The notes under the pieces were generated by a model, which saw only the letters and a list, made by a program, of their open reading frames with translations, had not been told where the DNA came from and searched no databases. The translations under genes and the position numbers were made by a program. Positions 3,001-25,500 of a stretch of 50,872 nucleotides of DNA are shown here, piece by piece. The stretch's first letter is position 1. The number at the start of each line of letters is the position of its first letter. The stretch is taken from positions 1-50,872 of the forward strand of contig JAYENX010000005.1 of NCBI GenBank assembly GCA_034722435.1, given 5' to 3'. Source of the DNA: Nanobdellota archaeon (lineage in GTDB: Archaea; Nanobdellota; Nanobdellia; Woesearchaeales; JAHWHD01).

Positions 3001-6000
3001 ATTCCTCCTAAACCTTCAATAGCAATTCTTTTCATCTGTGAAGGTTCTTGCGTATCTTTAATAATTGAGACTAAAAGATCTAATGATCTTTCATCTTCAA
3101 GTTCATTCAAAAGTTTTAGCAATTTTAATCTTCCGTAACGATCATTATCTTTATTTTTAATATGCTCTATTATCTCTGGTACTGCACCACTGGCTAAATT
3201 TTCTATTTGTTTTAACATTCTTAAACTATTAATCTCGTTGTAATCAAAATGCTTAACTAATATTGGCGCTGCAACATGCCCAATCTCTGCTAATTCTTCA
3301 ATAGCATCCCATTTTTGTTGGTCTCTATCAATTAATCTTAATCGATCTAATATATTTTTAAATACAGTATCTTCTAAAATACTGTCAAGCTCCTTAACCC
3401 TCTTCGCCACATCAACAGAAACCTCTCCCTCAACATCAACTCTCTTCCCACCCATCCTAATCAATATTTCATTATCACTAAAATCTAAATCTCTTAATGT
3501 CTGAACTCTATCATCAGAACCTATTAAGACTTTCATCTGAACTTCGGTCAGTGTGGGGAAGTTAGCCCTTAGAAAACCCTCTCCAAGTCCATTATACCAC
3601 TGTTCTATTTCTGGTGTTATTGTTGGAATAGTGCTAACTGATTCGGTTAGTGTTTGAGGTTTATCTTCAACTCCTGATATAAATTCTACACCTTCAAGTT
3701 TACCGCTCGCCATAGACTCAGATATAGTTTCTAATCTTTCTACATTATATTCGTTTATATCGTCTGTGTGGATAACGCCAAGAGCATCAACATAATATAA
3801 CAAATTAGATTTAGGGGCTGACAACTTAATTTGCTTATCTCCGTTTTTATAAACTTTAATACCTTTACTTTGCAACTTTTGCATCAACCTTTTTGCAGCA
3901 AAGTTTTGTGCAGTTGTACTTTCAACGTCTTGTGTATATAATTTATCTTCATTAAAAACCATAACAAAATTATTATCTGAATCATATAATCCGTGCGCAG
4001 TCTTAAATCCAATCATTTTGTTATTAGAATCATATAACCCTATCAATAACTGTGAACTATCACCTATAAAACCCATTAAGGCCTGAGAATAGCTTGACGC
4101 TCTATCACACTTTTGACAATTACCTTCGCTAGATCCTCCCGGACCATAATAACCTACGTGCAACGCATCTTCAAGCGAAGTTATAACTTTAGCAGTGGCA
4201 GTAGTTACTTCACTATTAACCCTTGCTCGTAAAACATTATTCAATAATGCAATAAAATCTCCATAATACTCTCTTGCTTCAGATTTAGATGTTGCTTTTT
4301 GTAAGTCCAATATTTTATTACTTAGACTTCCAATATCAAATTCAGATTTTATACTTTCTAATTCACTTAACATATCTTTTTCAACTAAACCATTTAAATT
4401 TTCGATTCTTTGTGCAATATCTTCAGATTGTTTAATCGTTGAGTAATACCCCGGTATTTTTTCAAGTATAGTTAATTGAGCTATAACCCCTGGAAGAATA
4501 TTTTTAATACTTTTTTCTTTAGAACTTGATAAAATCTTTTCAAGATCTTTCTTTTTTTCTTCAACATTATCTAGCGTAATATCGCTTACTGTATGTTTAA
4601 CTTCATCATTATCAATTCTTTCCGCTAAATATTTAATTTTCTCAACAATACCTGATTCGATATCCTTTTCTTCAACTTCTTTTCCAATTTGACTTTTATG
4701 CTGATGCATACTTGAAATTACTGTAGAAAAATATTCTGCGTATATATCGCTTCTATCCCTGATAGTTACAGTTTCAGATAACTCGCGAGCATTGAATAAT
4801 GTTTCATACAATTCATCAGGAATCTGTTCCTTGGAATTTTTAAACTTCTCTTTCCATAAACCTTCTTTCCCACCCTTTACAAATGCATTCATCAATTCTT
4901 TAAGTCTTTTTAATGCATTAGCATTATCTTGATATGTCAATACCAGAGTTACTGCATCAACTATAAAATCACTATTATCTAAAGCATGTGCAAAATCATT
5001 ATGAACTTCATCGCCCCCTATATCATACATTTGAAGTATTTTATATTTCATACTCTCTGCAAATAATTTTTCAGGGTCTTCCGATTTTAAAACATTCACA
5101 CTCTCTTCCAAGCTCAAATATCCACTATCAATTAAATTTAACATTACTGGCACTAAACTAAAAAAGTTTGAATTTGTTATAGAATCAAATAATACTTTTC
5201 TTCCTTCATTAAATTTTAAAGATTTAGTTAATGCTTCGATTATTTGTAACTTTTTTGCATTAGATTTAATTTTTCTACCTTTTTCAATAAAATCTAATCT
5301 ATCATTCTTTTCAATTTTTGAGAGCAAAAAGTCATAAACAAATAACCATCCTTTCTCTTTCGAATTAAACGAAACTAGTTCAGATACAATCTCTCGTGAA
5401 ATTCTTGAATCAGCAATAAACATATTTTGTATAACGTTTTGCATAAATATTTCATTATTCTTACTAATACCTCTTGCATGTAATGCTACTATTGGTAATT
5501 TTAAGATTGGATGAAGTTCATCAGGCAATGATGCATAAAACTGTCCTAATTCATGTTCTGGGTTTTTAGATGCAAGATTTAAAACATCACACATTACATC
5601 TTTTACAATAAAAGGGTCTGTTAACATCTCTATTAATGGTTCTATTGCACTTTCATCTCCAATCTTCGCTAACGAATTTACTACAGTCCGTCTTACATCT
5701 GAATTCTCATCTTTTAATGCTTGTATTAGTGCAGGCACTGCAGGTTTTCCTATTTCCACTAACGCCTCTCCCGCACTTTCTTTTACATCTGAATCCTCAT
5801 CCTTCAATGCTTGTATTAGTGCAGGTACTGCAGGTTCTCCTATCTCTCCTAACGCTCCTGCCGCATATGTTCTTACAGCTGAATTCTCATCTTTTAATGC
5901 TTGTATTAGTGCAGGTACTGCTGTTGAATCTTTTATCTTTCCTAACGCCCCTGCCGCATTCCTTCTTACATGCCAATTCTCATCTTTTAATGCTTGTATT

Positions 6001-7982
6001 AGTTCAGGCACTGCTGTTTGATCTTTTATCTTTCCTAACGCCTCTGCCACATTCCTTCTTACATTTGAATTCTCATCTTTTAATGCCTGTATTAGTGCAG
6101 GCACTGCAGGTTCTCCTATTTCCACTAACGCCTTTGCCGCACCCCCTCTTACATCTGATTCCTCATCTTTTAATGCTTGTATTAGTGCAGGCACTGCAGG
6201 TTCTCCTATTTTCACTAACGCCTCTGCCGCATCCACTCTTACACCTGGGTCCTCATCCTTCAATGCTTGTATTAGTGCAGGCACCGCTGTTTGATCTTTT
6301 ATCTTTCCTAACGCTCCTGCCGCATTCATTCTTACATGCCAATTCTCATCTTTTAATGCTTGTATTAGTGCAGGCACCGCTGTTTGATCTTTTATCTCTC
6401 CTAACGCCCTTGCCACATTCAGTCTTACATCTGATTCCTCATCTTTTAATGCTTGTATTAGTGCAGGCACCGCAGGTTCTCCCATTTCCACTAACGCCTT
6501 TGCCGCATATATTCTTACATCTGAATCCTCATCTTTTAATGCTTGTATTAGTGCAGGCACCGCAGGTTCTCCTATCTCTCCTAACGCCTTTGCCACATAT
6601 CTTCTTACATGTGATTCCTCATCTTTTAATGCTTGTATAAGCTGAGGCACTGCAGGTTTTCCTATTTCCACTAACGCCTCTGCCGCATATTTTTTTACAA
6701 ATGGGTTCTCATCTTCTAATGCTTGTATTAGTGCAGGTACTGCAGTTGGATCTTTTGTCCTTCCTAACGCCTTTGCCACATATCTTCTTACATGTGATTC
6801 CTCATCTTCTAATGCTTGTATTAGTGCAGGTACTGCAGTTGGATCTTTTGTCCTTCCTAACGCCTTTACTATATTCTCTCTTACACGCCAATTCTCATCT
6901 CCTAATATTTGTATTAGTGCAGGTACTGCAGGTTCTCCTATCTCTCCTAACGCCTTTACTATATTCTCTCTTACACGCCAATTCTCATCTCCTAATGCTT
7001 GTATTAGTGCAGGCACTGCTTTTGGATCTTTTATATTTCCTAACGCCTTTGCTGCATACCCTCTTACATATGATTCCTCATCTTTTAATGCCTGTATTAG
7101 TGCAGGTACTGCAGTTGAATCTTTTATCTCTCCTAACGTCTCTGCCGCATAACTTCTTACATGCGATTCATCATCCTTTAACAATTGTATTAGTACAGGT
7201 ACTGCAGTTGGATCTTTTATCTCTTCTAACGCCTTTGCCACACATATTTCTACAATCCAATCCTCATCTTTTAATGCCTGTATTAGTGCAGGTACTGCAG
7301 TTGAATCTTTTATCTCTCCTAACGCCTCTGCCGCATTCCGTCTTACAGCTGAATTCTCATCTTTTAATGCTTGTATTAGTGCAGGCACCGCTGTTGGATC
7401 TTTTATCTCTCCTAACGCCTCTGCCGCATTCCGTCTTACACCTGAATCCTCCTCTTTTAATGCTTGTATTAGTGCAATCACTGCTTTTGAATCTTTATCA
7501 TCAACACTAACGCCCTTTCCACCCATCCTAATTAATATTTCATTATCACTAAAATCTAAATCTCTTAATGTCTGAACTCTATCATCAGAATCTACTAATG
7601 CCTTTAATTGTCCTTCATCGAGCGTTGGGAAGTTAGCCCTTAGAAAACCCTCTCCAAGTCCATTATACCACTGTTCTATTTCAGGTGTTATTTCAACAGC
7701 AACCTTCTCTTCATCAACAACTTCCTCCAACTCCTGCTCTCTTACCCTTTCAATAATATTAACAGCCTGCTCCCTCGACAAACCTTGCCTATCAAAATCC
7801 TCTTTATTATTCTCATAATACCATGCAGCATAAATTTGATTATCAGTGGGTCTTTCTAAACCTTCATCTATTAACTTCTGCTTGTACACCTCTTTAGATA
7901 CGGACGTCATACACAAACCATTTACAGAACTAACCACTAGTATGAAAACTAATACAAAACTTAACAACTTCTCAAATTTCAT
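1..7982 (-). CDS. Giant secreted modular protein G1 (>2660 aa, 3' end outside window): signal peptide, ~20 HEAT repeats, atypical kinase-like domain, three near-identical linker domains
   Basis: ATG at 7982 overlaps the upstream TGA (ATGA). It starts MKFEKLLSFVLVFILVVSSVNG, a Sec-type signal peptide. By-eye translation stays in frame to the window edge (...WFDIDERRKLIEHGVVGAEG). Its absence from the ORF track fits the lack of an in-window stop. Confidence 0.9.
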   Translation of the reverse strand, partial: MKFEKLLSFVLVFILVVSSVNGLCMTSVSKEVYKQKLIDEGLERPTDNQIYAAWYYENNKEDFDRQGLSREQAVNIIERVREQELEEVVDEEKVAVEITPEIEQWYNGLGEGFLRANFPTLDEGQLKALVDSDDRVQTLRDLDFSDNEILIRMGGKGVSVDDKDSKAVIALIQALKEEDSGVRRNAAEALGEIKDPTAVPALIQALKDENSAVRRNAAEALGEIKDSTAVPALIQALKDEDWIVEICVAKALEEIKDPTAVPVLIQLLKDDESHVRSYAAETLGEIKDSTAVPALIQALKDEESYVRGYAAKALGNIKDPKAVPALIQALGDENWRVRENIVKALGEIGEPAVPALIQILGDENWRVRENIVKALGRTKDPTAVPALIQALEDEESHVRRYVAKALGRTKDPTAVPALIQALEDENPFVKKYAAEALVEIGKPAVPQLIQALKDEESHVRRYVAKALGEIGEPAVPALIQALKDEDSDVRIYAAKALVEMGEPAVPALIQALKDEESDVRLNVARALGEIKDQTAVPALIQALKDENWHVRMNAAGALGKIKDQTAVPALIQALKDEDPGVRVDAAEALVKIGEPAVPALIQALKDEESDVRGGAAKALVEIGEPAVPALIQALKDENSNVRRNVAEALGKIKDQTAVPELIQALKDENWHVRRNAAGALGKIKDSTAVPALIQALKDENSAVRTYAAGALGEIGEPAVPALIQALKDEDSDVKESAGEALVEIGKPAVPALIQALKDENSDVRRTVVNSLAKIGDESAIEPLIEMLTDPFIVKDVMCDVLNLASKNPEHELGQFYASLPDELHPILKLPIVALHARGISKNNEIFMQNVIQNMFIADSRISREIVSELVSFNSKEKGWLFVYDFLLSKIEKNDRLDFIEKGRKIKSNAKKLQIIEALTKSLKFNEGRKVLFDSITNSNFFSLVPVMLNLIDSGYLSLEESVNVLKSEDPEKLFAESMKYKILQMYDIGGDEVHNDFAHALDNSDFIVDAVTLVLTYQDNANALKRLKELMNAFVKGGKEGLWKEKFKNSKEQIPDELYETLFNARELSETVTIRDRSDIYAEYFSTVISSMHQHKSQIGKEVEEKDIESGIVEKIKYLAERIDNDEVKHTVSDITLDNVEEKKKDLEKILSSSKEKSIKNILPGVIAQLTILEKIPGYYSTIKQSEDIAQRIENLNGLVEKDMLSELESIKSEFDIGSLSNKILDLQKATSKSEAREYYGDFIALLNNVLRARVNSEVTTATAKVITSLEDALHVGYYGPGGSSEGNCQKCDRASSYSQALMGFIGDSSQLLIGLYDSNNKMIGFKTAHGLYDSDNNFVMVFNEDKLYTQDVESTTAQNFAAKRLMQKLQSKGIKVYKNGDKQIKLSAPKSNLLYYVDALGVIHTDDINEYNVERLETISESMASGKLEGVEFISGVEDKPQTLTESVSTIPTITPEIEQWYNGLGEGFLRANFPTLTEVQMKVLIGSDDRVQTLRDLDFSDNEILIRMGGKRVDVEGEVSVDVAKRVKELDSILEDTVFKNILDRLRLIDRDQQKWDAIEELAEIGHVAAPILVKHFDYNEINSLRMLKQIENLASGAVPEIIEHIKNKDNDRYGRLKLLKLLNELEDERSLDLLVSIIKDTQEPSQMKRIAIEGLGGIDSDRARAELGELLSTLTSDQVLTGEYPVMRALSKHGKKSTPYLLDALNSPEKYVQTGAAIILGDIKESKAVDSLIKIVESNEDEYIRHIAMAALGNIKDKKAVQILSQFANEGSINAMYALMKINDVDAIINLNVENKNDMLYQLGNLQKVKDEGLTELVKDIENQQIRNENLDSEYSKYPDLIRALKAETKLEGVKKDDNIVAWYTKGGVNTFLVKDEKGLEYILKTPNEYKKDFELDHEYNMLKTIQEEMPEEYKRFFPRPAKLIYDYSQGKIAGILLEYFADTITLKEAGTVSPEFYSKLDEIVREMGEKGIRNNDLHNEQVLVKGNEPRLIDFGRAIIHPDPISDYKNDNLRNVRLWEAVYYNSQIKYDDFSFINDLLNAGEITKEEFIAINKGEMKMPTNSKGQTYSEIIEKIKELESVFEDSTFKKIMGITGIINIEQQKKNAVNELGTLGNYGIEPLEKIIAKEDLTIKQEAIKSLENMGELAITPLTKSLRYGEWEERMYAAQALGNIGDNRATEQLTRSLDDKNSLVKEQVVLALEKIEPKQEINNVVEDIADEIGDTKPATLFDVVNDFSITPEIEQWYNGLGEGFLRANFPTLDEGQLKVLVDSDDRVQTLRDLDFSDNELMLRMGGKGVSVDDKNNQISLLELNLESEISKTGIDVNQINLMQQNSRGVMTLYQYLQALKSGEAESQGVSLGLTGSPYTELSLLGSHWNWIDAYRSWFQLSTDEKTEEFMQELVKREEEVVFFVPSNIFTHSEAGATARELEWLLNNPQGMKNVHFVVGGYDSSIEGYFQNLGEMDVIGNEDEIIDEILNAKLLPIYDLEVSETASLRVAHLYGVDTKSISDTVLEFKKSLSQLNYNELSRANKLFESLALKWEKEFPIENEKLKSLWVIFVVKNHEEKELAKKAAIVLNRKITERETKALRKAHLIGFENGRVLGPIKEDGTYEKSTINPYSELELLQKARILELAWFDIDERRKLIEHGVVGAEG
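1063..1259 (-). repeat. Linker-domain repeat copy 3 in G1 (ITPEIEQWYNGLGEGFLRANFPTL...DNELMLRMGGKGVSVDD)
   Basis: Shares identical 52-bp and 56-bp runs with the copies at ~3448-3620 and ~7494-7691. Confidence 0.95.
1960..2400 (-). other. Atypical (APH/RIO/Kdo-like) kinase-fold domain in G1
   Basis: YILKT (lysine), HEY (helix C Glu), LLEYF (hinge), NNDLHNEQ (catalytic-loop-like), LIDFGRA. Confidence 0.6.
3448..3620 (-). repeat. Linker-domain repeat copy 2 in G1
   Basis: Same 52-bp and 56-bp identical runs as copies 1 and 3. Confidence 0.95.
5630..7490 (-). repeat. Tandem array of ~20 HEAT (PBS-lyase-like) repeats, 90/93-bp units, within G1
   Basis: Recurrent AVPALIQALKDE-x-x-x-VR-x-x-AA-x-ALGEI-(KDxT|GEP); highly similar DNA units. 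Confidence 0.92.
7494..7691 (-). repeat. Linker-domain repeat copy 1 in G1
   Basis: Same identical runs as copies 2 and 3. Confidence 0.95.
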
Positions 7983-8819: not shown

Positions 8820-9698
8820 ATGAAAATAGTAGCAGTTTCAGATTTACATATGCCGGGTAAGAACGATTTCAACCTATTTCATGCTTTGAAAGATTTACCT
8901 GCAGAAATAGATGTATTAGTACTGGGTGGCGATATTGCATCTTCTAGTGAACTACTGAGTCCTTCACTTCAAAAACTTGAAAAGATGTTAGATGATTACA
9001 ACATCACTGTTAAACACAGAGTTTTTGTTCCTGGTAATCACGAAATATACAAAAGAAAAGAATCTCAAAACCCTATACTAAAATTCTTAGGATTTGGAAA
9101 ACCTGATTCTGTTAAAGTGTATGAAGGTCTTGCTAGTATAGTCGCAGATCATGGATACCATATGTTAGACGAAAAACCTTTAGTAATCGACGGTGTAGCT
9201 TTTGTTGGTAATATTGGGTGGTACGATTATTCTTTTAGAAACAACACAGATCTCGAGGTCGTAGTAAATGGCAGATTAAAGAAATTAAAAGATTTTAAAG
9301 ATTCAGATTATGCATCAAAAAAAGCGCAAGATCCAAAATCTGGAAAAACCTTTGTCTGGCCAGACAAAAATACATTTAATGATAAAGAATTCACTGATCA
9401 ATGTTTAGAAAAACTTGAACAAGATCTGGAACAGGTAAAAGATTATAAAAATATTATTGTAGTAATGCATAATGTGCCTTTTAAACAAAACCTTTCTCGA
9501 TCAGGATCACCATTCATACAATTCACAACCGCATACATGGGCTCAGAAAGATTCGGAGAGTTAATCAGAAAATATCCTGTTAGAACCGTCATTCATGGTC
9601 ACGCACATTCAGGGTCGGGAGATTACAAAGTTGACGGTGTAGATTGCCATAATGTGGCATTTAAGAGAAAAATTAAAATAATTGATTACAGTAGGTAA
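8820..9698 (+). CDS. Calcineurin-like metallophosphoesterase
   Basis: Motifs SDLH, GGDIA, GNHE, HNVP, GHAH; no signal peptide. Confidence 0.9.
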   Translation: MKIVAVSDLHMPGKNDFNLFHALKDLPAEIDVLVLGGDIASSSELLSPSLQKLEKMLDDYNITVKHRVFVPGNHEIYKRKESQNPILKFLGFGKPDSVKVYEGLASIVADHGYHMLDEKPLVIDGVAFVGNIGWYDYSFRNNTDLEVVVNGRLKKLKDFKDSDYASKKAQDPKSGKTFVWPDKNTFNDKEFTDQCLEKLEQDLEQVKDYKNIIVVMHNVPFKQNLSRSGSPFIQFTTAYMGSERFGELIRKYPVRTVIHGHAHSGSGDYKVDGVDCHNVAFKRKIKIIDYSR

Positions 9699-9704
9699 AT
9701 TATA

Positions 9705-10412
9705 ATGTGGAGGGAACAAGTTGGGGAACTGGCAGATATTCTTCTAGATAGTTTTGACCCTAATAACGAGATCATGCATTACGATTTTTCAATTGAAAAT
9801 TTAAGAATTCTAGACTTTGCAGGCTCTAAAGCTCTACCTAAAACTGACCCCACTATTCTAAGTATACAAATAGGCGGAAACTACAAATCAGGTGCTTTGT
9901 TAAGTTATGAGGTAAAAGCAAGTTGCAAGGGCGAGATTTCAGAATTAGATTATTTTAAACAGAACTTGTATCCTATTCTAAAACAATACCATGAAAAACA
10001 AGACCATACTGAAGTTTTTAAACATCTTGCTTACTTAGAATATTTCTGGGATAAGAAGGGTATGCATCAACAACATTTCAGACCTACTAACTCCGCTCTA
10101 AGCCAGTTAAGAGACATTTTTAGCTCTAACAATTGTTATTGCAATATTGGGACTGATCAGACCCGCGCAGATCTTAACAGAATTCTCGCTGAAAGAAAAC
10201 CTGCAAGTTCTCTTCAACATCTTAAACGTATAGACGAGATAAAGATTTTTTCAAGATTCGGCGAACCTGATGTATTCTCCGGTTACAAAGAAGGTCCACT
10301 CTTTGATAGACAAGTAATTGAATCATACTTCAGAAGCCAACCAAAAATCATGTCACGAGCACATAAGATGATTATAAATTTTAGAATACCTTATAGTGTA
10401 GAGACTGCTTAA
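9705..10412 (+). CDS. Hypothetical protein (235 aa)
   Basis: Long ORF 6 nt after the phosphoesterase; no recognised motif. Confidence 0.7.
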   Translation: MWREQVGELADILLDSFDPNNEIMHYDFSIENLRILDFAGSKALPKTDPTILSIQIGGNYKSGALLSYEVKASCKGEISELDYFKQNLYPILKQYHEKQDHTEVFKHLAYLEYFWDKKGMHQQHFRPTNSALSQLRDIFSSNNCYCNIGTDQTRADLNRILAERKPASSLQHLKRIDEIKIFSRFGEPDVFSGYKEGPLFDRQVIESYFRSQPKIMSRAHKMIINFRIPYSVETA

Positions 10413-13400
10413 CATATCTCGCCTTTGATTTTCTTCATCAGACCTAAATTATTTACCGTTGCAGCTCTTCCCGTTATATCTATAAATATTTGATCTAGGT
10501 TAGTTTCTGAACTAAGCTTATCTTGGTATATTTTGTTAACATTATTTATATGCGACATGAAAGCCTCTATGAAGGTATCAGTATTTGTTACCAATTTTAA
10601 CTGCCTATTACTTTCGTAACCTATCTTATTATTTACTTGTTGAACAACATCTAACAAATTATTCTCTGTAAGATAAAATGTCTCTTCATCTAGATTTCTC
10701 CCAACAATTTCAAGTTCAGTCCTGACTACACTAAAGAATTCTAACGCGCTTTTTATCTGTTTAGCTTGTTGCTTTGTAAAATATCCCCTAATTACTAATT
10801 CATCTAATGTTTTATCTGTTGAAGGTTCGGTTATACTGAACAACGCTTTACCACTATTTATCAAATACTGGGTATGTCTGATAGTGAGGGGCCCTCTTTT
10901 AATATCTCCTGGCTGAAACTCTGGCTTAGAAATTGTTGTTTCTCCTCTTATAGCTCTTTCTGCAATAAATTTCATGTATAACTCAGTATCACTGACTAAT
11001 TGGTCACCTCGCCTGGACGTTTTTACGTACTGTTTTAAGAACATATCACTATCCTGTAAAGCTCTTTTTTGTAATTCTGTACCTAATTTTGTTTCGATAT
11101 CCTTTGCGAAAGTATTGCTCGACGTTTGCACAACTCTGGCATCTAACCCTTCACTTACTTGGAACAGTTCAAGATCTTTAATCTTTTTAATGTATTCATC
11201 TAAACTTAAAACATTAAAAGCCTTCTGCTGATATTTCTTAAACCTGTGTTCACTGATTAAACCCCTTTCTTCTACATTAAACCCTGCATTTGAAAGTATG
11301 GATGTAATCTCTATAGCCAATTTTTCAAAGTACACGTCATCAGGATTATCAAATAAAATATCTTGAAATTTTGCTTTTCTGTCATGCAATATTAATACCT
11401 CAAAATCAGAATCAATCCCTGTCTCACTTCTTGCCTGACTACCTGAAACTATCAATGAATAATCCTTATCAGTCTTATAACCTTCCATCTCCAACCTTTG
11501 CTTCGCGATTTCATGCGCTTTTAATAAAGCTACGTCCTGTGCGGCTGTCATAATTCTATTCACTTGCTGCACATCCTTATTGTTATCAAAATCTGCTATT
11601 GCAATATCCACAGCCGTTGTTTTCAATGTCGCCAAATCCTGTTCAGTTTTTAACCCTTCACTAAATTCATCAAAGAACTCTAATTGAGTTTTTTTCTCAG
11701 GGACTAACGATTCAAATATTCTTTTTAACTGTGCAGCCGATGGTCTCTCCGTAGGATTCTGGGATAAAGCTTTCTGTAGAACTCCAATTAAATCTTCAGA
11801 AATTCCTCTATCTCTTAATCTTTTAGTGTTAATTTGATACACTTCTGTCGAGTCTCTTAAACCTGCATATTTACCTGGTCCTGTTGTAGGAGTTTCCAAG
11901 GTTAACATTTCATATATCATCCATGCTGCTGCATACACATCAACATCAGTATCATCAAACTGATTAATATTGAAAATATCTCTGATTCTTGATGTTTCTG
12001 CAATCTCTGGAGCAGAATAAGTAATTGTTCCAACTTTTGGAATGTCCTTAATACGCAGTTTTTCCTTAGTTTTCACATCAAATCCTGCGAGTCCAAGATC
12101 AATAATTTTCAAAGTTCCGTCGCTCTGAACAATCATATTATCTGGTTTAATATCTCTATGGGCAACACCCTGATTATGCATGTACTCAAGTGCGTTGAAC
12201 AACTGGGCACTAATTCTTGCAACTTCATCAATATTCAAAGGCCTTCCTTTATCCATTTTATCTCTTATACTTTCTCCCGCGATATACTCCTGAGTAAAAT
12301 ACGGCATTTTTCCTTTGACTGCGTTGTCACCTCCTTTAGCAATATTGGGATGGTCAAGAATGTTTAGAACTTGAGCCTCTCTATCGAATAATGTGACAAA
12401 AACTCTATTCGCATTTTCTATCTTTAGAACTTTTAACGCCACTTTTTGACCATCTTTCTCAGCCACAAACACTGTTCCAGAAGCGCCTGAGCCAAGCTCA
12501 GCAATATTTTCATAACCCTCCTCTGCCAACTTACTTATTAATTCGGATACCTGTATTTCTCTTCTATTGTTATAGAGTTTTTCTAGATTTGGTTTAAGTG
12601 TATCGGATAAGATTTTAATCATGTCAATTCTATTACTCACTTCCCGTCCACTTTCTATCATATTAATTGTTGTTGCCACATACCTTCTAAGCAAGGTCCA
12701 TGTTCCTGTTTTTTTATCTGTAAGTTCATCACTACTATAAGAAGAAACTGGCGTCAAAAGATTTATTGCTTGATCAATTTCGTCCAACCTTAATTTCATC
12801 AATTCAGTATCTAATCCTTCTTTCACAAATAAATCAAATCTAGTTGTGGCTACAAGATCAGGAAGATTAATATCATTAATACCTTCATACCTTTTGCCAT
12901 TTACTGATAATTCGTAATCTAACAAGTTTTCAAATACTATCTTAATATTTCTCGGAACAGGTTTATCCTTGAAAATATTTTTGATACCTGCTTCCATATC
13001 ACTAATTATGTCGCTTAACGAAGCACCCCTTTCAAAACTTCTCTTTATCCTTCCTATTCTATCTGACTTCTCAAGGAATTCTGCAAGTATAGGTGTATCC
13101 CAAACAGGTTCGTTAAACATATCATCTATTGCCTTACTAATTAACTTATTCCTTTGTTGTTGATCAAACCTAAATATCCAGTCTGCCTGATTATCTGTCA
13201 ACGGACTAAATGTGGTAGGGTTCTTTTTCTCAAACAATGGTTTAACTTCAATAAAGAACCCTCCATTATTAACAACATCCTCAACACTATTTCCTAGTTT
13301 AACCTTTGCTTTTGAATTAGCTTTAATTATTTCACTCGCACCATCTGCAAGCGCATTAAGTTGAGCGGCATCTATTTGATTAAATTGTGACTTAACTGTA

Positions 13401-16400
13401 ACCATTCCAATACTTACTGATGGTTTCAATTCTTCACTGAATTTTCTGCCTGTGCTTATAATATAATCATTTAACTCTATATTTATCCTTCTTGATATTT
13501 CTTTATTGGATATATCTATATTTTTGATATTATTTTGTATTATTTTTAAAACTGTAATCTTAAGTGCATCTGCGAAGTCTGCACCATACCTTTGATTAGT
13601 TTTCCCAAAATTATTTATGTCAACCCTTGCAAATCTTACCTCTTCATTCCCACTAATGACAAATCCTATTTCGTCTCCGCCTACAATAAATGTCTGAGCG
13701 AACTTTTTTTCTCCTTGGTTATCTAATAATTTATTTGTTACAAGCTTAAACAGATTATTGCCATCTAAGAACCCTGCAAACTCCTGATTCAGTGAAGCTG
13801 TCTCCCATATTGCATCATCTAACGTGGCAACTCTATCTAAATCAGCATTAGCAATAGCTTCATCTCTTGCATCAAATATTTTTGTAACATCTACAGGTAC
13901 AATCTTTTCTCCAAAGAAATCATACTCATTAGCGTATAATTTTGGTACCAGCCTTGCCTCGCAACAATCATTTATACTGCTATATTGCACTACGCTAGTA
14001 CCTTTCAATCTCTTAAGTGTGTTTAATATTTCATCAAAATTTGCATCTTTATTAATCTGATTATTTGTCAGCCTCGACACAATATCTCTATCAACTATTT
14101 GACCTTCCTGTAATGCTATTGTAGTTTCTAAATCCAAATTTTCAAATTCTTCTATGTTTATCCCTGCAATATCTCTTAACTGTCCAGTTTTTCCTGCGAT
14201 TGTTGATTGGTCATTCAATTTTTGTGCCTGATGTAAATTTTTAATTCTGGTCTTTTCTGAAACTCCTGCATAAAAATTTAATTCATCAAGATCTAGCACT
14301 CTTTCATCGCCCTTCTTAGCTTCATCAGCATAAATGGGTTCGTCTACAATTTGATTTGGCACTTTTATTATTATATCTGCCCTAAACTCTTCGTCATTGA
14401 GGATATTCTCAAGATACGATGCAGGATTACTTCCGTCCCATTCATTTAAAGCCTTTTCTAGCCCTCGTCCTGTCTGCTTCAAGAAATCATCCCCTACTAT
14501 GTGGCCATATCTTGTATTTACTTGATTCTTAAAATCCTGAATATCTACTGTAGCAATCTGCACCTCTCCATCATCATGCTCAAACACTATTTTGAAAGTT
14601 TTACCTGCTTTATGGTGTACCGTCGCTGTCGGGGTAGTTGCAATTTTGCCCTCTGATATCTTCCAAAGATGATTGTGGTATGCTATTTTACTCCGTACGA
14701 AATGATAATCTCCTAACACATATTCTTTTAATGAATCAGTTATATCTTTTTCAACCTGTAGCGGATCATTTACACGTTGTGCAAAAGCAATATTATTAAG
14801 CTCTTTATTTACTATTGAATATTGATTAGTCTCCTGCAGAAGTTCTTGCAAAGTTCTCTTTGCAAAATATGATCCTGCAAGATGCCCTTGATCTGTATTT
14901 AGTTTAGCACCATCTGCAAGTATCTCGCCTAGCTCGTGAGCTATCATGGCTCTTAAGGCTGAAGTTCTCTGTGTTCCTTCTAATAATGGGAAAAACTGTC
15001 TTTGTAAATAATCTGTATCAATAACTATTTCCCATGTTCCATCATCTTGCTTTTTAGAGTATATTGGTCCAAGTTCCGGATCAGACCCCTTTTTTATTGG
15101 TATCTCGTTACCCTGGAATTCTATTTTCATATTTTCAGTTTGTAATTTATTTTGTTCAGGAGTTTTAGTTTTTATCACATTCAACGAATCCCATTTTACT
15201 TGCTTAACAGCATTGATTACTTGAACCTTCTCAACATTAACCTCTCCGAGTATATTCTTTAATTCGCTTTTAGCAATTTGTGAAGCTGGAATTTGTCTTA
15301 CAAATTGTCTTATATTACTGCTAGGTTCTTGTATGACTACTCGTACTGGAGTCTCCCCTTCAAATTCAGGTTCGGGCGAATTATCAATAATTCTTGGTGC
15401 GAGCTGATTTATCTCTCCCTCAACCCACTTAACTTCACCAATCTCATCACTAAAATCAGAAACACTTTTCTCAGAAATCAAATTCAAGATAAATAACGTT
15501 TTATCATGCGACAACTTTGATCTTGTTCTAAACGCTTCATACTTATCTGCAATAAGCAATTGCTTACCTTGTTTAGATATTTGTTTTTGTTCATCTGTTG
15601 CTTCTTCGGCGGGTATCCTTTTCAAAGTTTCAGCATCAACATCTAAATATAATACGAACGATTTATCTCCATAAACATCAACTCTATGATGCTGAGCAAC
15701 TGCTTCAACTATTTCTTTTTTAACATTTGCATTTTTTAATATTTGAACGCTCCATAAAGAATGTGAGTCCCAAAAATCGCCCATTGTATCAACAACAACA
15801 AAACTTCTTCCTGTAAACGGATTATCAACTATACTCAGAAGTTCTATTAACTCTATACCTTCTTCGTTACTTATTTTATTTTGTTCAACAGCATTTGTAA
15901 CGAATGTTTTAATTGTTGTATCTTTATTAACATCTTTAACTCCTTCTATGCTATACAATTTAGTTACTGCCATCGTAACTGCGCTATGTGCCAAATCAAG
16001 TCCTTTTGTAAACAAATTAGTTTGCTCTTGATTTAACCCTGTTGGGCCTGTTTTTCCTATATCGTGTAATAAACCTGCAATGTGTAAATCCCTATCTCCT
16101 GGATTCATTTGTTTTAGATAATCCATAACACCTTTTTCATAATGACCAGTATTTCTTTCTAGATAAGCGAGTCTTGTCGAGATAAGTTCTAGATCACCTT
16201 CAACCCCTAAACTTGTGAGTTCAAGATTAATTTCAGTTTTTCTTTTATCTAAAGAAGCATCTTCAAACGCATCATTAAAACTTTCTTCCGATTCAACATC
16301 TAACTCCTCCAACACTTCACTCGCGCCCTCTCCTATTTTACTTCCTATTTCATAATCTCCGATTACTTTAACATCTGCGTCTTTAAAACTATTCAACCTG

Positions 16401-22545: not shown

Positions 22546-25500
22546 CATTTTATCTCTTCTTTTATTTTAACAACGTTCTCTATAATGTTTGCAGTCGGTT
22601 GTATACCTATATGTTGTATCTGCTGACTGACTAATACAGAACTTCCTACAGATATTTCTTTATACTCTTTAGCAATTTCAATAACTCTTTTGAAATCAAC
22701 AGGTCTTCCCCCTTCTGCAAAATCTGTTATGAGATCTGTTTTAGAATTTGGATGTATCAATTTTAGATTCGATTCTTCTGTTATTAGCTTATCTAAAGCA
22801 ACATCCTTTTTAAATGTTTTAATAATTTCTTCTAAATTATTAACTGGCTGATTATCGGATAATTGAACCACTAGTTGTTCTATGCCTACCCCTATAAGCC
22901 CAGACTCTTTAGGTTTATAGATTCCTTCTTGTTGGAATATCTTCTTTAATAATCTTATTTGTTCTGCAATAAACTCTTTTGCAAGTTCTTGGTCGTTTGG
23001 CGAAAGTTTACTAACTATGTTATCCATTTGTCCTTCAAACCCTTGTTCTGTTCTATATAGATGAGTTGTATCTAAACTTAGTTGTCTTTGATTTCTTATG
23101 GTTACATCTATGCCAGTTATTTCATTATTTGCTCCATAACTTCCATCACTCTGTACTCCGTATACGCATCCACCACTACACAATCTTAAGAAAAATGTGT
23201 TACCATAATCTTCGCTTCCCGCAGGTCTTTGATCTAATTGAAGTTTCACATCATTACCATATATTTCTTGCAATTTCTGTTCCAGACTAGGAATAATTGC
23301 CCTTAGAGTATTTTCACTTTGTAAAACGCCTGACTCGCTTCTTAGTAAGAAATCAAAATCCCCTGGCATTCCTTGGCTAGATGGAACATACGTGTGCGAA
23401 GCTGATGAACCCGTTGACCAAACTTCCGCAGTTGCAAATGCTGTACTTAATGTTTGATGTATTTTTGATTCTAAATCACTGACTCGTCCCTTACTAGCTT
23501 CAGTCAAAGTAACTGTTGAAAGCAAAGCACCAGATTCTTTAATAGGTGCCGATTTTATAATTTCTTTTTCAACTTGAACCTCTGCTCCTAATTCTTTATT
23601 AATCTCATTTTCTAAAACATTCATAATTTCTGGATTCGCATCTTGATAATATAACAATTCAATCCTTTTTTTGTCTGGATTATATTGTTCAATTCTCAGA
23701 ACAGGATTATCACTTTCAATATCTTCAACAGCTAACATTATTTTATTACGTACATCTAATATTATCCGTACTACACCATCCTTGGCCATACTTGCATCGA
23801 ACTCTAATCCTATCATCGGAAAACCGAGAAGTTCTTGATCGCCTTGCTTAATTTTCATATTGATTCCTTCTTGTCTAAACTCATATCCAGGTATTTGTAT
23901 GTTTCCATTTAATAATTTATCAAGAACTTTAGTTTTTAATTCAGATCTAATATTTTCCCCTACTAATATTCCTTTAGCATCTTCAAACGTTAGTTCATAA
24001 CTTGCTTCTTCAACTTGACCTTCTTTAATCATTGTTGGAACAAGCTTTCCTGCTTTTACAGATGAAATACTAAATTCTATTAGTTTCATTGCAGATGAAT
24101 CACTCATGGAAATTTTTGTTAAACTTCTTACTCTTCCAACACCGCCCCCTATTGGAATTCCATCATCAGTGGCTGTTTTATACACCTCCTCTAATAATTT
24201 ATTAAAATCTCCAAACTCGGCTATTAAATTTTGAACATCTTGTTCTCCAATATCTTTAATGTTATGCCTCGTAAATAAAGTATTAACCATTGCTACTTCT
24301 GCATTTACAGGATCAACAATATTTGATTGAAGATTTTGTTTTCCATTAATTAAACTTGTATCCAACATATCTTGATTTACTTGTCCGGTATTATCTTTTA
24401 CTAACTTAATTTCTTTAATCATGTCAAAGTCAATTAGTCCTTTAAAGTTTAATTCTCTATCTTGATATTTTTTAACTTGGCCAGGTGTTACATATCCTAC
24501 AACATTCTCAGGATTATAATCTTCAATTACAATTACTACTCCTACTTGATTATCTAATAAATTTTCAAGGGCGAACTTTTCAGCAACCTCATCAGAAATA
24601 GATGATGACATAAATACAGTATCTTCAGGGTCTTGTTGTACGTGCTCTTCAAAAGCTGCTCTCTCGCTACCTGCTTCAGCTCCTGCAATTGATTGAGCTT
24701 TTGCAATTCGTTGATCTACGAATCTCGAAATAATCTCAGGATTCGTAATACCTGTACCTATAAACGCTCTTGATGTTATAACGCCTTGATCAACTAATGT
24801 CTGCAATTCATTTAATGTTAGTCTCATACCTCTATACAATGTTTTTGGTTTTCTATATGTTAAATCTTGATTCATACCAAGCATCACATTATTTACAAGA
24901 CCGGCAGCACTTTCATCATCAAGATTTTTTATATTGTCAATTAATCCAGGATTAGCTTCTAACACTTTAACTTGTGATTCAATATCTAAATCTCTTAAAA
25001 TAGTAAACAATCTGTTGGCATTGGTAAGGTCTGTTGTATATAATCTCATACTTAAAATACTTAATTTTTGTACTGCCAAAATTTTTTCATCGATTTTTGT
25101 CCCTTTACCTTGTAATCTGTCCATAATATTTAATTTATTCTTTTCTTTTTCTAATTCTTCCAGCATGAAATTAAGCAAGGTAAACCTGCTACTTCCTGAG
25201 ATGTCTTCACCAACAATGAAATCAGGATGTTCAACTTTTTGTTGGGCCTGATAAGCTTCATAAGCCGCCTGCGTTTCAGCAGTTACAGGCACACCTCCTG
25301 CTCTTATCGCAATATGATTCACTGTTAACTCTTCATCTTTTCCTAGTAAAGTAACTATTCTTAAATCTGAAGGGATATCCCAGAGCTCTTCTCTTGTTTC
25401 AAAAATCTGTCCTTCTCCAATCATTCCTTTAAAATTGTCTGCAAGGAACGGTTTGAAACTATCATCAGGATTTTCTATGAACTTTGCCAATTTTCTCAAT

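Follow-up and report, generated by a model that had tools for sequence, protein, structure and literature searches.

Here we describe G2, a giant gene at 10409..19357 (-) of contig JAYENX010000005.1 (assembly GCA_034722435.1), which comes from a Nanobdellota archaeon of the Woesearchaeales (JAHWHD01) and was analysed over its whole 50,872 nucleotides, called the window below. We read the G2 product as a Sec-exported giant "effector array" of Woesearchaeota acting in a partner cell, a reading to which we give a probability of roughly one half. Action in a partner cell is proposed because of what seven intact catalytic centres require as substrates, the absence of adhesion and sensor domains, and an evolution that resembles that of conflict systems. 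To our knowledge, no archaeal secreted effector enzyme has been characterised so far, and we know of little on the means by which DPANN archaea adhere to their hosts, feed on them and control them. An exported family built almost wholly of catalytic modules would offer concrete candidates for such host control, and cassette shuffling would be a possible route by which tiny genomes diversify their host-contact tools.

Open reading frame, signal peptide and topology

G2 is a single open reading frame of 2,982 codons, encoding 2,982 amino acids (aa), with no in-frame stop under translation table 11. Since stop codons are frequent at 35% G+C, an unbroken frame of this length should not be attributed to chance. 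The window is the entire contig C5 of a 1.30-Mb assembly that is 94.5% complete and holds an archaeal 16S rRNA gene, and the source organism, a Woesearchaeota/DPANN archaeon, is tiny and of the symbiont type. Towards its far end the contig carries Rpb7/RpoE, ribosomal proteins S24e and L10/P0, the origin-associated OapB and OapC, and GTPases, and G2 has 34.9% G+C where the genome as a whole has 33.0%; both points mark the gene as chromosomal and native in composition. A mobile element and a mis-binned contig were ruled out by the same core genes and the native G+C.

The N-terminus carries a predicted Sec signal peptide (residues 1-22; 19292..19357 (-)) reading MNFKK-IISLVFIFILVL-SVVSA, with the predicted cut between VSA and GD and Cys26 after it. 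Its n-region has a charge of +2, its h-region spans 12 residues, and its c-region has V at -3 and A at -1, so that by sequence rules it has the features of a class I Sec signal peptide with a predicted cleavage site. Tat, lipobox and class III signals were also considered and rejected, their motifs being absent from G2 and no twin arginine being present. In a Kyte-Doolittle scan the only window above 1.6 was residues 6-24 (2.49), and the second-best (1.37) fell on the DFG strand of kinase 1. The first-pass annotation had proposed a secretion signal and no long transmembrane anchor, and both proposals agree with these results: residues 6-24 are the sole strongly hydrophobic window, and the predicted Sec-type n/h/c pattern recurs in extracellular proteins of the genome and in related giants.

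A like start was found in the large proteins of this genome that carry fibronectin type III (fn3), Ig-like, carboxypeptidase-regulatory-like and M23 peptidase domains. It was also found in the neighbouring giants G1 and G3 and in all seven full-length giants with the central module of G2 (residues 1320-2280), each with a signal peptide and small residues at -3 and -1. These seven are G2, P0002 (MBW3015063.1, the giant of isolate FT2_348; 4,364 aa), P0097 (7,281 aa), P0098 (4,742 aa), P0101 (MBW2999149.1; 2,082 aa), P0230 (5,627 aa) and P0231 (5,141 aa). A short relative, P0103 (1,222 aa), has an HD domain, a cNMP-binding domain and the pair of palm domains described below, and has no signal peptide. 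The genome encodes SecY and two archaeal signal peptidases I, and export and signal cleavage of G2 are presumed from these sequence features.

The N-terminal side of the hydrophobic segment carries a charge of +2 and the next 30 residues about -3, which by the positive-inside rule predicts an N-in/C-out orientation. This argues that, with the signal cleaved or uncleaved, the bulk of G2 would lie outside the cell, and it speaks against the scenario that had been named as refuting delivery into another cytoplasm, namely an uncleaved anchor with its cargo in the cytoplasm. The broader form of that scenario, a cytoplasmic hub of the archaeon itself with either an N-out/C-in anchor or a translation start at Met25, appears rather unlikely to us. 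In its favour, all G2 domains are classical cytoplasmic signalling enzymes, codon 25 is a second ATG, P0103 carries the palm pair without a signal, and a phosphoesterase gene is adjacent. Opposed to the hub are the predicted N-in/C-out orientation, and the hydrophobic start with small -3/-1 residues, which is kept in every full-length relative and in G1 and G3. The regulator-like family encoded upstream mostly precedes genes with a hydrophobic start, Pfam finds no sensor or receiver domains in G2, and the genome holds no second GGDEF. Rapid module shuffling and restriction to one family are likewise atypical of core signalling.

Kinases and other catalytic modules

The domain order proposed by the first-pass annotation was recovered by Pfam and NCBIfam, and the catalytic motifs are complete in the sequences of the three kinases, the GT2, the HD domain and the nucleotidyltransferase (NTase). 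The kinases were scored in a genome-wide Pkinase scan (PF00069, cut-off 31.7 bits). Kinase 1 (residues 153-420; 18098..18901 (-)) is a non-RD Hanks kinase with 154 bits (G160, K182, HQD273-275, DFG293, APE322), and kinase 2 (residues 714-979; 16421..17218 (-)), its sister, is non-RD with 169 bits (G721, K743, HAD848-850, DWG868, AME896). Kinase 3 (residues 2285-2546; 11720..12505 (-)) is a canonical RD kinase with 156 bits (G2289, K2309, HRD2400-2402, DLG2420, APE2449). All three have the Gly loop, the VAIK Lys, the alpha-C Glu, the catalytic Asp with its Asn, the Mg-binding Asp and an APE-like motif of Hanks-type kinases, which bears out at the sequence level the earlier description of them as PknB/Hanks-like. 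They do not belong to the PknB/Stk1 PASTA kinases proper (NF033483), as G2 has neither a PASTA domain nor an internal transmembrane segment; the 498 bits to this model are summed over the three kinases and cover only profile positions 9-264 of 563. The layout is also reversed with respect to PASTA kinases, with the signal first and the kinases behind it.

A kinase relic had also been noted, and it is real: residues 1001-1013 (16319..16357 (-)), reading DYEIGSKIGEGAS (13 residues), align with the G-loops of the three kinases, and the sequence after them shows no further alignment to kinases. Judged from its sequence, this relic resembles a scar left where two cassettes were joined.

In a quick maximum-likelihood tree, the seven giant-borne kinase domains fell on one side of a branch with a Shimodaira-Hasegawa-like approximate likelihood ratio test (SH-aLRT) support of 95; one very long-branched row fell on the giant side too, and its placement is unreliable. 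On the other side were the signal-less standalone kinases of the genome and the best database matches, 31-38% identical, of which the few named ones were all bacterial (Zixibacteria, Gemmata, Planctomycetaceae and Blastocatellia). Kinase 3 forms a pair with the kinase that comes first in the FT2_348 giant (99 SH-aLRT; 50% identity). In terms of the suggested per-domain phylogeny, the kinases form a giant-borne clade of their own, and their top named matches are bacterial and lie outside that clade. Separately, four tandem genes at G000:C12:8900-13700 (438-526 aa) each encode a divergent kinase domain without a signal peptide; they form a tight long-branched clade (100 SH-aLRT) and are separate paralogues.

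Between kinases 1 and 2 lies a GT2 glycosyltransferase (residues 423-630; 17468..18091 (-)), which matches Pfam Glycos_transf_2 (PF00535) over residues 425-~630 with 62 bits against a cut-off of 23.3 and contains the DxD motif (DAD519-521) and ED617-618. In the PDB its closest sequences belong to GT2 enzymes, among them TarP 6h1j (E 5e-4). The HD phosphohydrolase (about residues 1080-1230; 15668..16120 (-)) matches PF01966 over residues ~1080-1130 with 29 bits against a cut-off of 22, with H1092, HD1098-1099 and HHRVD1223-1227, which places it in the HD superfamily. It is not an HD-GYP phosphodiesterase of cyclic di-GMP (c-di-GMP), as the GYP motif is absent and HD_5 gives 14.7 bits.

Two GGDEF-like domains had been listed, and two related palm domains are indeed present, both of them divergent. 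Palm A (residues 1576-1700; 14258..14632 (-)) matches Pfam over 1591-1639 with 24.6 bits, reads GKTF for GGDEF, and keeps the DxxFK...GH strand and helix. Palm B (residues 1885-1990; 13388..13705 (-)) matches over 1907-1949 with 23.7 bits and reads GGDEI and has GGDE1893-1896 ahead of VDINNFGKTN1912, a motif that is invariant in alignment A1 and present in P0096, P0099, P0101 and P0103. With a PF00990 cut-off of 23.8 bits both copies are borderline, and only profile positions ~26-75 are matched. In both domains the hairpin stands ahead of the DxxFK strand, a permuted order, and neither copy is a canonical GGDEF cyclase. Homologues with a canonical-order copy A reach 43 bits over profile positions 22-117. 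The palm domains of G2 are therefore true relatives of GGDEF but not canonical members. Within the family, the hairpin of palm A precedes DxxFK in G2, P0002, P0096 and P0099 and follows it, in the canonical order, in P0101 and P0103, which is a circular permutation polymorphism inside a single family; in palm B, GGDE always precedes DINxFGKTN.

The GGDEF match of G2 is the sole one in the genome, and the literature describes diguanylate cyclases and c-di-GMP as almost confined to bacteria and not detected in archaea (PMC10249747). This archaeon is therefore unlikely to have a c-di-GMP network of its own.

The C-terminal module combines an NTase with a helical domain (residues 2590-2701 and 2818-2943; 10529..11590 (-)). 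It matches DUF294 (PF03445) with 40.9 bits and GlnD_UR_UTase (PF08335) with 27.8 bits, each against a cut-off of 21, and has GS2639-2640 followed by DSD2650-2652, so its sequence has the marks of a DUF294/GlnD-GlnE-type NTase. No PDB sequence matched this module, no homologue of 232-741 aa was found at E<=1e-5, and no match was found in 40 related genomes.

Residues 1392-1527 (14777..15184 (-)) form a weakly assigned zincin-like fold. No Pfam match was obtained for residues 1310-1575 and no PDB sequence match for 1320-1580; in the ESM Atlas, residues 1310-1570 gave a sub-threshold lead (0.82-0.88) to "LPD23" domains of phage polyvalent proteins, without confirmation by Pfam. The AlphaFold2 model was built from a two-sequence alignment, and its core (residues 1409-1524) has a predicted local distance difference test score (pLDDT) of 72-85. 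The modelled core is a small beta-sheet followed by a long helix bearing H1474-E-L-G-E1478, with H1492 downstream. The top VIA-wide matches were selecase 4qhf (Z 5.8, 93 residues aligned), jannalysin (Z 5.5) and abylysin (Z 5.4), all of them minigluzincins, and the next were BepA, CapP and PprI. The non-significant Foldseek rows include further zincins (BlaR1, botulinum neurotoxin E light chain, SPRTN and snapalysin). From this model, the region may possibly be a processing peptidase, which we take as a weak lead. For residues 2030-2285, the ESM Atlas gave 0.79-0.82 to short unannotated clusters, again without confirmation by Pfam. Apart from the similarity among the kinases, no tandem or dispersed repeats were found in G2.

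Module exchange and the proposed site of action

The central module proved very rare, with 8 matches among 1.84 billion cluster representatives. A scan of one genome per prokaryotic species found it in two other genomes, both Woesearchaeota metagenome-assembled genomes, JAHWHG01 (isolate FT2_348) and PCVE01 (CG11), and all named carriers are "Candidatus Woesearchaeota archaeon". The array of kinases, GGDEF-like domains and NTase, together with the convergent partner gene described below, is specific to this small family.

Within the family the modules form mosaics. Residues 1339-2182 and kinase 3 of G2 share 45-47% identity with the C-terminal third of the FT2_348 giant, whose first 2,900 residues are similar to the head of G3 and not to that of G2. 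The GT2 module of G2 shares 54-59% identity with a module of another giant, encoded by G001, an unpublished genome of the same genus. Taken together, the kinase tree, these mosaics and the G-loop relic suggest that modules are exchanged as cassettes by recombination, possibly at kinase sequences.

In the proposed mechanism, G2 would probably be transcribed together with the gene of a dual helix-turn-helix (HTH) regulator, threaded through SecYEG and probably cut after Ala22. It would then lie outside the membrane, possibly retained via Cys26 and the Cys-ended tail. The two non-RD kinases, the RD kinase, the GT2, the HD domain, the palm cyclase pair and the NTase would need ATP, GTP or nucleoside diphosphate (NDP) sugars, and their site of action would most plausibly be the cytoplasm of a contacted partner cell, where such substrates exist. 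Inside that cell the modules would add phosphate, sugar and nucleotide groups to host proteins and upset the pools of nucleotide second messengers. The central zincin-like domain may cleave the G2 chain into pieces. Two proteins encoded behind G2, one of 235 aa and a metallophosphoesterase, would both be cytoplasmic and may neutralise or chaperone the cargo before export. Since G2 has no translocation device, entry would have to rely on something else; the aid, if any, may be G3-type heads with glycine-rich hydrophobic stretches or a cytoplasmic bridge such as has been described for some DPANN. From exported enzymes that depend on nucleoside triphosphates (NTP) we infer delivery into another cytoplasm as the best available explanation, and surface retention, entry into another cell, the substrates of all modules and the roles of the neighbours are presumed along with it.

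Several points weigh against action in a partner cell. The signal of G2 is one predicted by sequence rules (n/h/c regions and -3/-1 residues). No pore-forming, receptor-binding or translocation domain is recognisable in G2. The zincin-like assignment is weak, with Z <6 and HELGE...H in place of HEXXH. Judging from the signal-less sequence of P0103, the palm-pair module can work in the cytoplasm. The 235-aa gene is convergent with G2 and not downstream on the same strand like classical immunity genes, and pairing of a kinase with a phosphoesterase is also typical of ordinary signalling.

The same export evidence would serve an enzyme platform at the cell surface or interface that modifies the archaeon's own envelope or the surface of a partner and enters no cytoplasm, an alternative that we consider possible but unlikely. 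S-layer or matrix proteins would then be glycosylated or phosphorylated with nucleotides leaked or concentrated at the junction, and the size of G2 would be that of a spacer or scaffold. The lack of a translocation device fits such a platform, the other large signal-peptide proteins of the genome are clearly surface proteins, and secreted ecto-kinases exist in other organisms, which gives a general precedent. However, where substrates are scarce it is hard to see why seven centres that depend on NTP or NDP-sugars should stay intact, two cyclases plus an HD hydrolase would have little purpose away from a cytoplasm that contains receptors, and Pfam finds no adhesion, Ig, fn3 or lectin domains in G2.

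A cross-domain variant of the effector reading, which we regard as doubtful, holds that Sec export is followed by delivery into a peptidoglycan-bearing bacterial host. The PknB-like kinases, the palm pair with the HD domain, and the GlnD/GlnE-like NTase would seize Ser/Thr phospho-signalling, cyclic-dinucleotide pools and PII-type regulation. In this doubtful variant, release would be by the variant HExxE...H zincin, modules would pass between giants by recombination at kinase "handles", with the G-loop relic as one scar of it, and Cys26 and Cys2982 would tether the protein to the cell or to neighbouring giants. The bacterial flavour of the modules and an M23 peptidase in the genome hint at a bacterial partner, which, if true, would be an unusual cross-domain interaction.

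Among known systems, the Archaeovorins of Omnitrophota (West-Roberts et al., bioRxiv 10.1101/2023.11.21.568195) are the closest published analogue, compared here by description only. Like G2, they are very large polypeptides of ultra-small host-dependent prokaryotes with an N-terminal signal and a proposed action on a partner cell, and they string together intracellular-type enzymes that are predicted to lie outside the cell. Their frequent domains include glycosyltransferases, HEAT, TPR and GGDEF (bioRxiv 10.1101/2023.11.21.568195). Unlike G2, they are bacterial, at least ten times as long, dominated by glycosyl hydrolases, peptidases, methyltransferases and NUDIX domains, and associated with genes for type II/IV secretion and PilZ. 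By their description they exceed 10,000 aa, carry a signal peptide with a C39/S8 peptidase near the N-terminus and have conserved secretion and PilZ genes beside them. G2 comes from an archaeon and is rich in kinases; a dual-HTH gene precedes it, and its 235-aa partner gene is convergent.

MARTX toxins of Vibrio and relatives share with G2 unrelated effector modules in one chain, module exchange and an internal peptidase candidate that could set the modules free. They use type I secretion, glycine-rich repeats as translocator and a cysteine protease activated by inositol hexakisphosphate (InsP6), whereas G2 has a Sec signal, no repeats, no Peptidase_C80 match and only the weak zincin-like fold; lacking both repeats and C80, it is not a MARTX protein. 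The SPEARE giants of Nanohaloarchaeota (Hamm et al. 2019; La Cono et al. 2023, PMC10266531) are likewise giant DPANN proteins with a Sec signal and a proposed host interaction, and they vary from strain to strain as the G2-type giants do. SPEARE proteins have Ig, fibronectin and other adhesion domains, a C-terminal membrane anchor and a VirB4/TraG-like ATPase, while G2 has none of these and consists almost wholly of catalytic modules. Legionella LegK and Xanthomonas XopAU, effectors of bacterial pathogens, are Ser/Thr kinases of eukaryote-like type that leave the producer and work inside another cell, as is proposed for G2. The NCBIfam LegK1 and XopAU models match G2 weakly (61 against a cut-off of 550, and 40 against 450), and these proteins are single-domain and injected by type III or IV systems, whereas G2 has a Sec signal and no known injector.

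Polymorphic toxins and polyvalent proteins (Zhang et al. 2012, PMC3482391; Iyer et al. 2017, PMC5512222) resemble G2 in their shuffled enzyme modules, including kinase, glycosyltransferase and nucleotidyltransferase, and in a small conserved gene linked to the cargo end. The cargo of G2 is multiple and internal, whereas polymorphic toxins carry one C-terminal toxin, and polyvalent proteins, unlike G2, have no signal peptides. By Pfam, G2 has no RHS, filamentous-haemagglutinin, HINT, type II (T2) or type V to VII (T5-T7) secretion domains, and its locus is chromosomal, beside ribosomal and origin-associated genes, not on a phage or conjugative element. Without such domains and with a convergent partner gene, G2 is not a classical polymorphic toxin.

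That G2 is a competitor-directed toxin of this type or a defence component, with the 235-aa protein as immunity, is the least probable of the explanations considered, and we think it improbable indeed. Shuffled cargo with a conserved small neighbour tied to the 3' end would fit it, G3 adjoins ADP-ribosylglycohydrolase genes, and the PADLOC models PD-T4-6, mad6 and PglW match the kinase domains. These PADLOC/NCBIfam matches, however, are generic kinase similarity summed over three domains and stay below the NCBIfam cut-offs (mad6 318 against 460; PglW 211 against 990). By Pfam, G2 has neither RHS, HINT or LXG domains nor others for trafficking or release, the candidate immunity gene lies convergently, archaea rarely have classical polymorphic toxins (PMC3482391), and the enzymes of G2 are modifiers, not nucleases, deaminases or pore formers. 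A defence system as such was also rejected: the PD-T4-6, mad6, PglW and MkoA matches are generic, and the neighbours have no defence match except to a weak Metallophos model.

Neighbouring genes, tails and the wider locus

Upstream of G2 lies the dual-HTH gene (157 aa; 19359..19832 (-)), sigma-70 region-4-like with 33 bits to Sigma70_r4_2. It is co-oriented with G2, its stop is 1 nucleotide (nt) ahead of the G2 start, and it probably encodes a co-transcribed regulator of G2. Its product is 65% identical to a paralogue upstream of G1 and 64% identical to one encoded ahead of another giant in FT2_348. Members of the family are present in 204 of the 301 sampled genomes of the order, and 30 of its loci were examined, one of them (L052, G133) from an unpublished genome. 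A gene of at least 100 aa starts -40 to +171 nt from the HTH stop in 26 of the 27 loci with downstream room; about 20 of these 26 genes start with a hydrophobic segment, and about half of the downstream genes run for at least 480 aa without a stop before the retrieved stretch ends. In eight loci (L033, L036, L039, L041, L044, L045, L048 and L049) the dual-HTH gene is followed by a secreted protein of 240-270 aa and no giant. These small proteins share the post-signal motif E/D-P-S-A-P-T-x-I or PTEPEGPTTLD, and appear to be an unannotated small exported family under the same type of regulator.

At the other end, the 235-aa gene (9705..10412 (+)) is convergent with G2, and the stop codons of the two overlap by 4 nt. 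With this query, homologues were found in this family only, in 3 of the 301 genomes of the order. All four instances, two of them from G001, converge on a kinase-bearing giant and overlap its 3' end. The protein has no Pfam or PADLOC match. AlphaFold2 gave one confident model of five (pLDDT 80), for which Foldseek found nothing at E<=0.001 and the VIA-wide matches were only generic helical ones with Z<=8.2. We regard the protein as a candidate inhibitor of G2, immunity protein or chaperone.

The giants examined overlap their convergent gene by exactly 4 nt with interlocked stops of the TTAG/CTAA type (10409-10412, 22542-22545, L010:17104-17107, L013:2573-2576 and L019:1195-1198), whether the partner belongs to the 235-aa family or is the ADP-ribosylglycohydrolase-like gene behind G3. 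For the giant on C93 of G001, whose convergent neighbour has metallophosphoesterase-like motifs by eye, the overlap is 8 nt.

The same convergent cluster contains a calcineurin-like metallophosphoesterase (8820..9698 (+); Metallophos 53 bits), which has no signal peptide and is predicted to be cytoplasmic. In the giant P0098, a Metallophos domain is fused right behind the palm pair, which links this enzyme class to the central module of G2.

G2 ends in a conserved C-terminal tail (10412..10486 (-)), ...TVNNLGLMKKIKGEIC, whose last residue is Cys2982. In this genome the tail type occurs in G2 and G3 only (G3 tail 22542-22640), and similar tails are found in the G001 giants (...NVIGRAIKELKQPC) and in the FT2_348 giant (...INIMEEARAASSCG). 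The family tails span ~20 residues and finish with Cys, as in ...KIKGEIC, ...KIKEEIKC, ...IKELKQPC (from G001) and ...ARAASSCG; further tail loci are L013:2500-2576 and L019:1120-1198. G2 has 4 Cys in its 2,982 residues, and two of them are Cys26 and Cys2982. In G1-type heads a Cys lies 2-4 residues past the predicted signal cut (LC, AC, DC, GDMC). Head-to-tail or giant-to-giant tethering via a disulfide or thioester is conceivable.

The window from 1 to 39600 is syntenic with the 209,714-bp contig JAHWHG010000004.1 of FT2_348 (L010/L015), on which the giant MBW3015063.1 sits, and the two genomes belong to different genera. The shared gene order starts with a YchF-like GTPase and a 254/314-aa membrane protein, continues with a giant that has a G3-type head, and closes with a dual-HTH gene followed by a giant whose head is of the G1 type. 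Cargo modules are not the same at the two loci, and the slot adjoins OapB/OapC; the locus looks like a fixed chromosomal "slot" with variable content.

The N-terminal third of G1 (window 5656-7577) is a HEAT array with a period of ~93 nt, 15 DNA copies and 730 bits to HEAT_2, and the G1 region contains three 197-nt linker repeats at 1063, 3424 and 7495. Elsewhere in the genome, G000:C22:14466-20576 (L021) encodes a 2,036-aa signal-peptide protein with fn3 and Ig-like domains that ends in Peptidase_M23. As M23 is a peptidoglycan-cutting family, this protein hints that the archaeon contacts or attacks bacteria.

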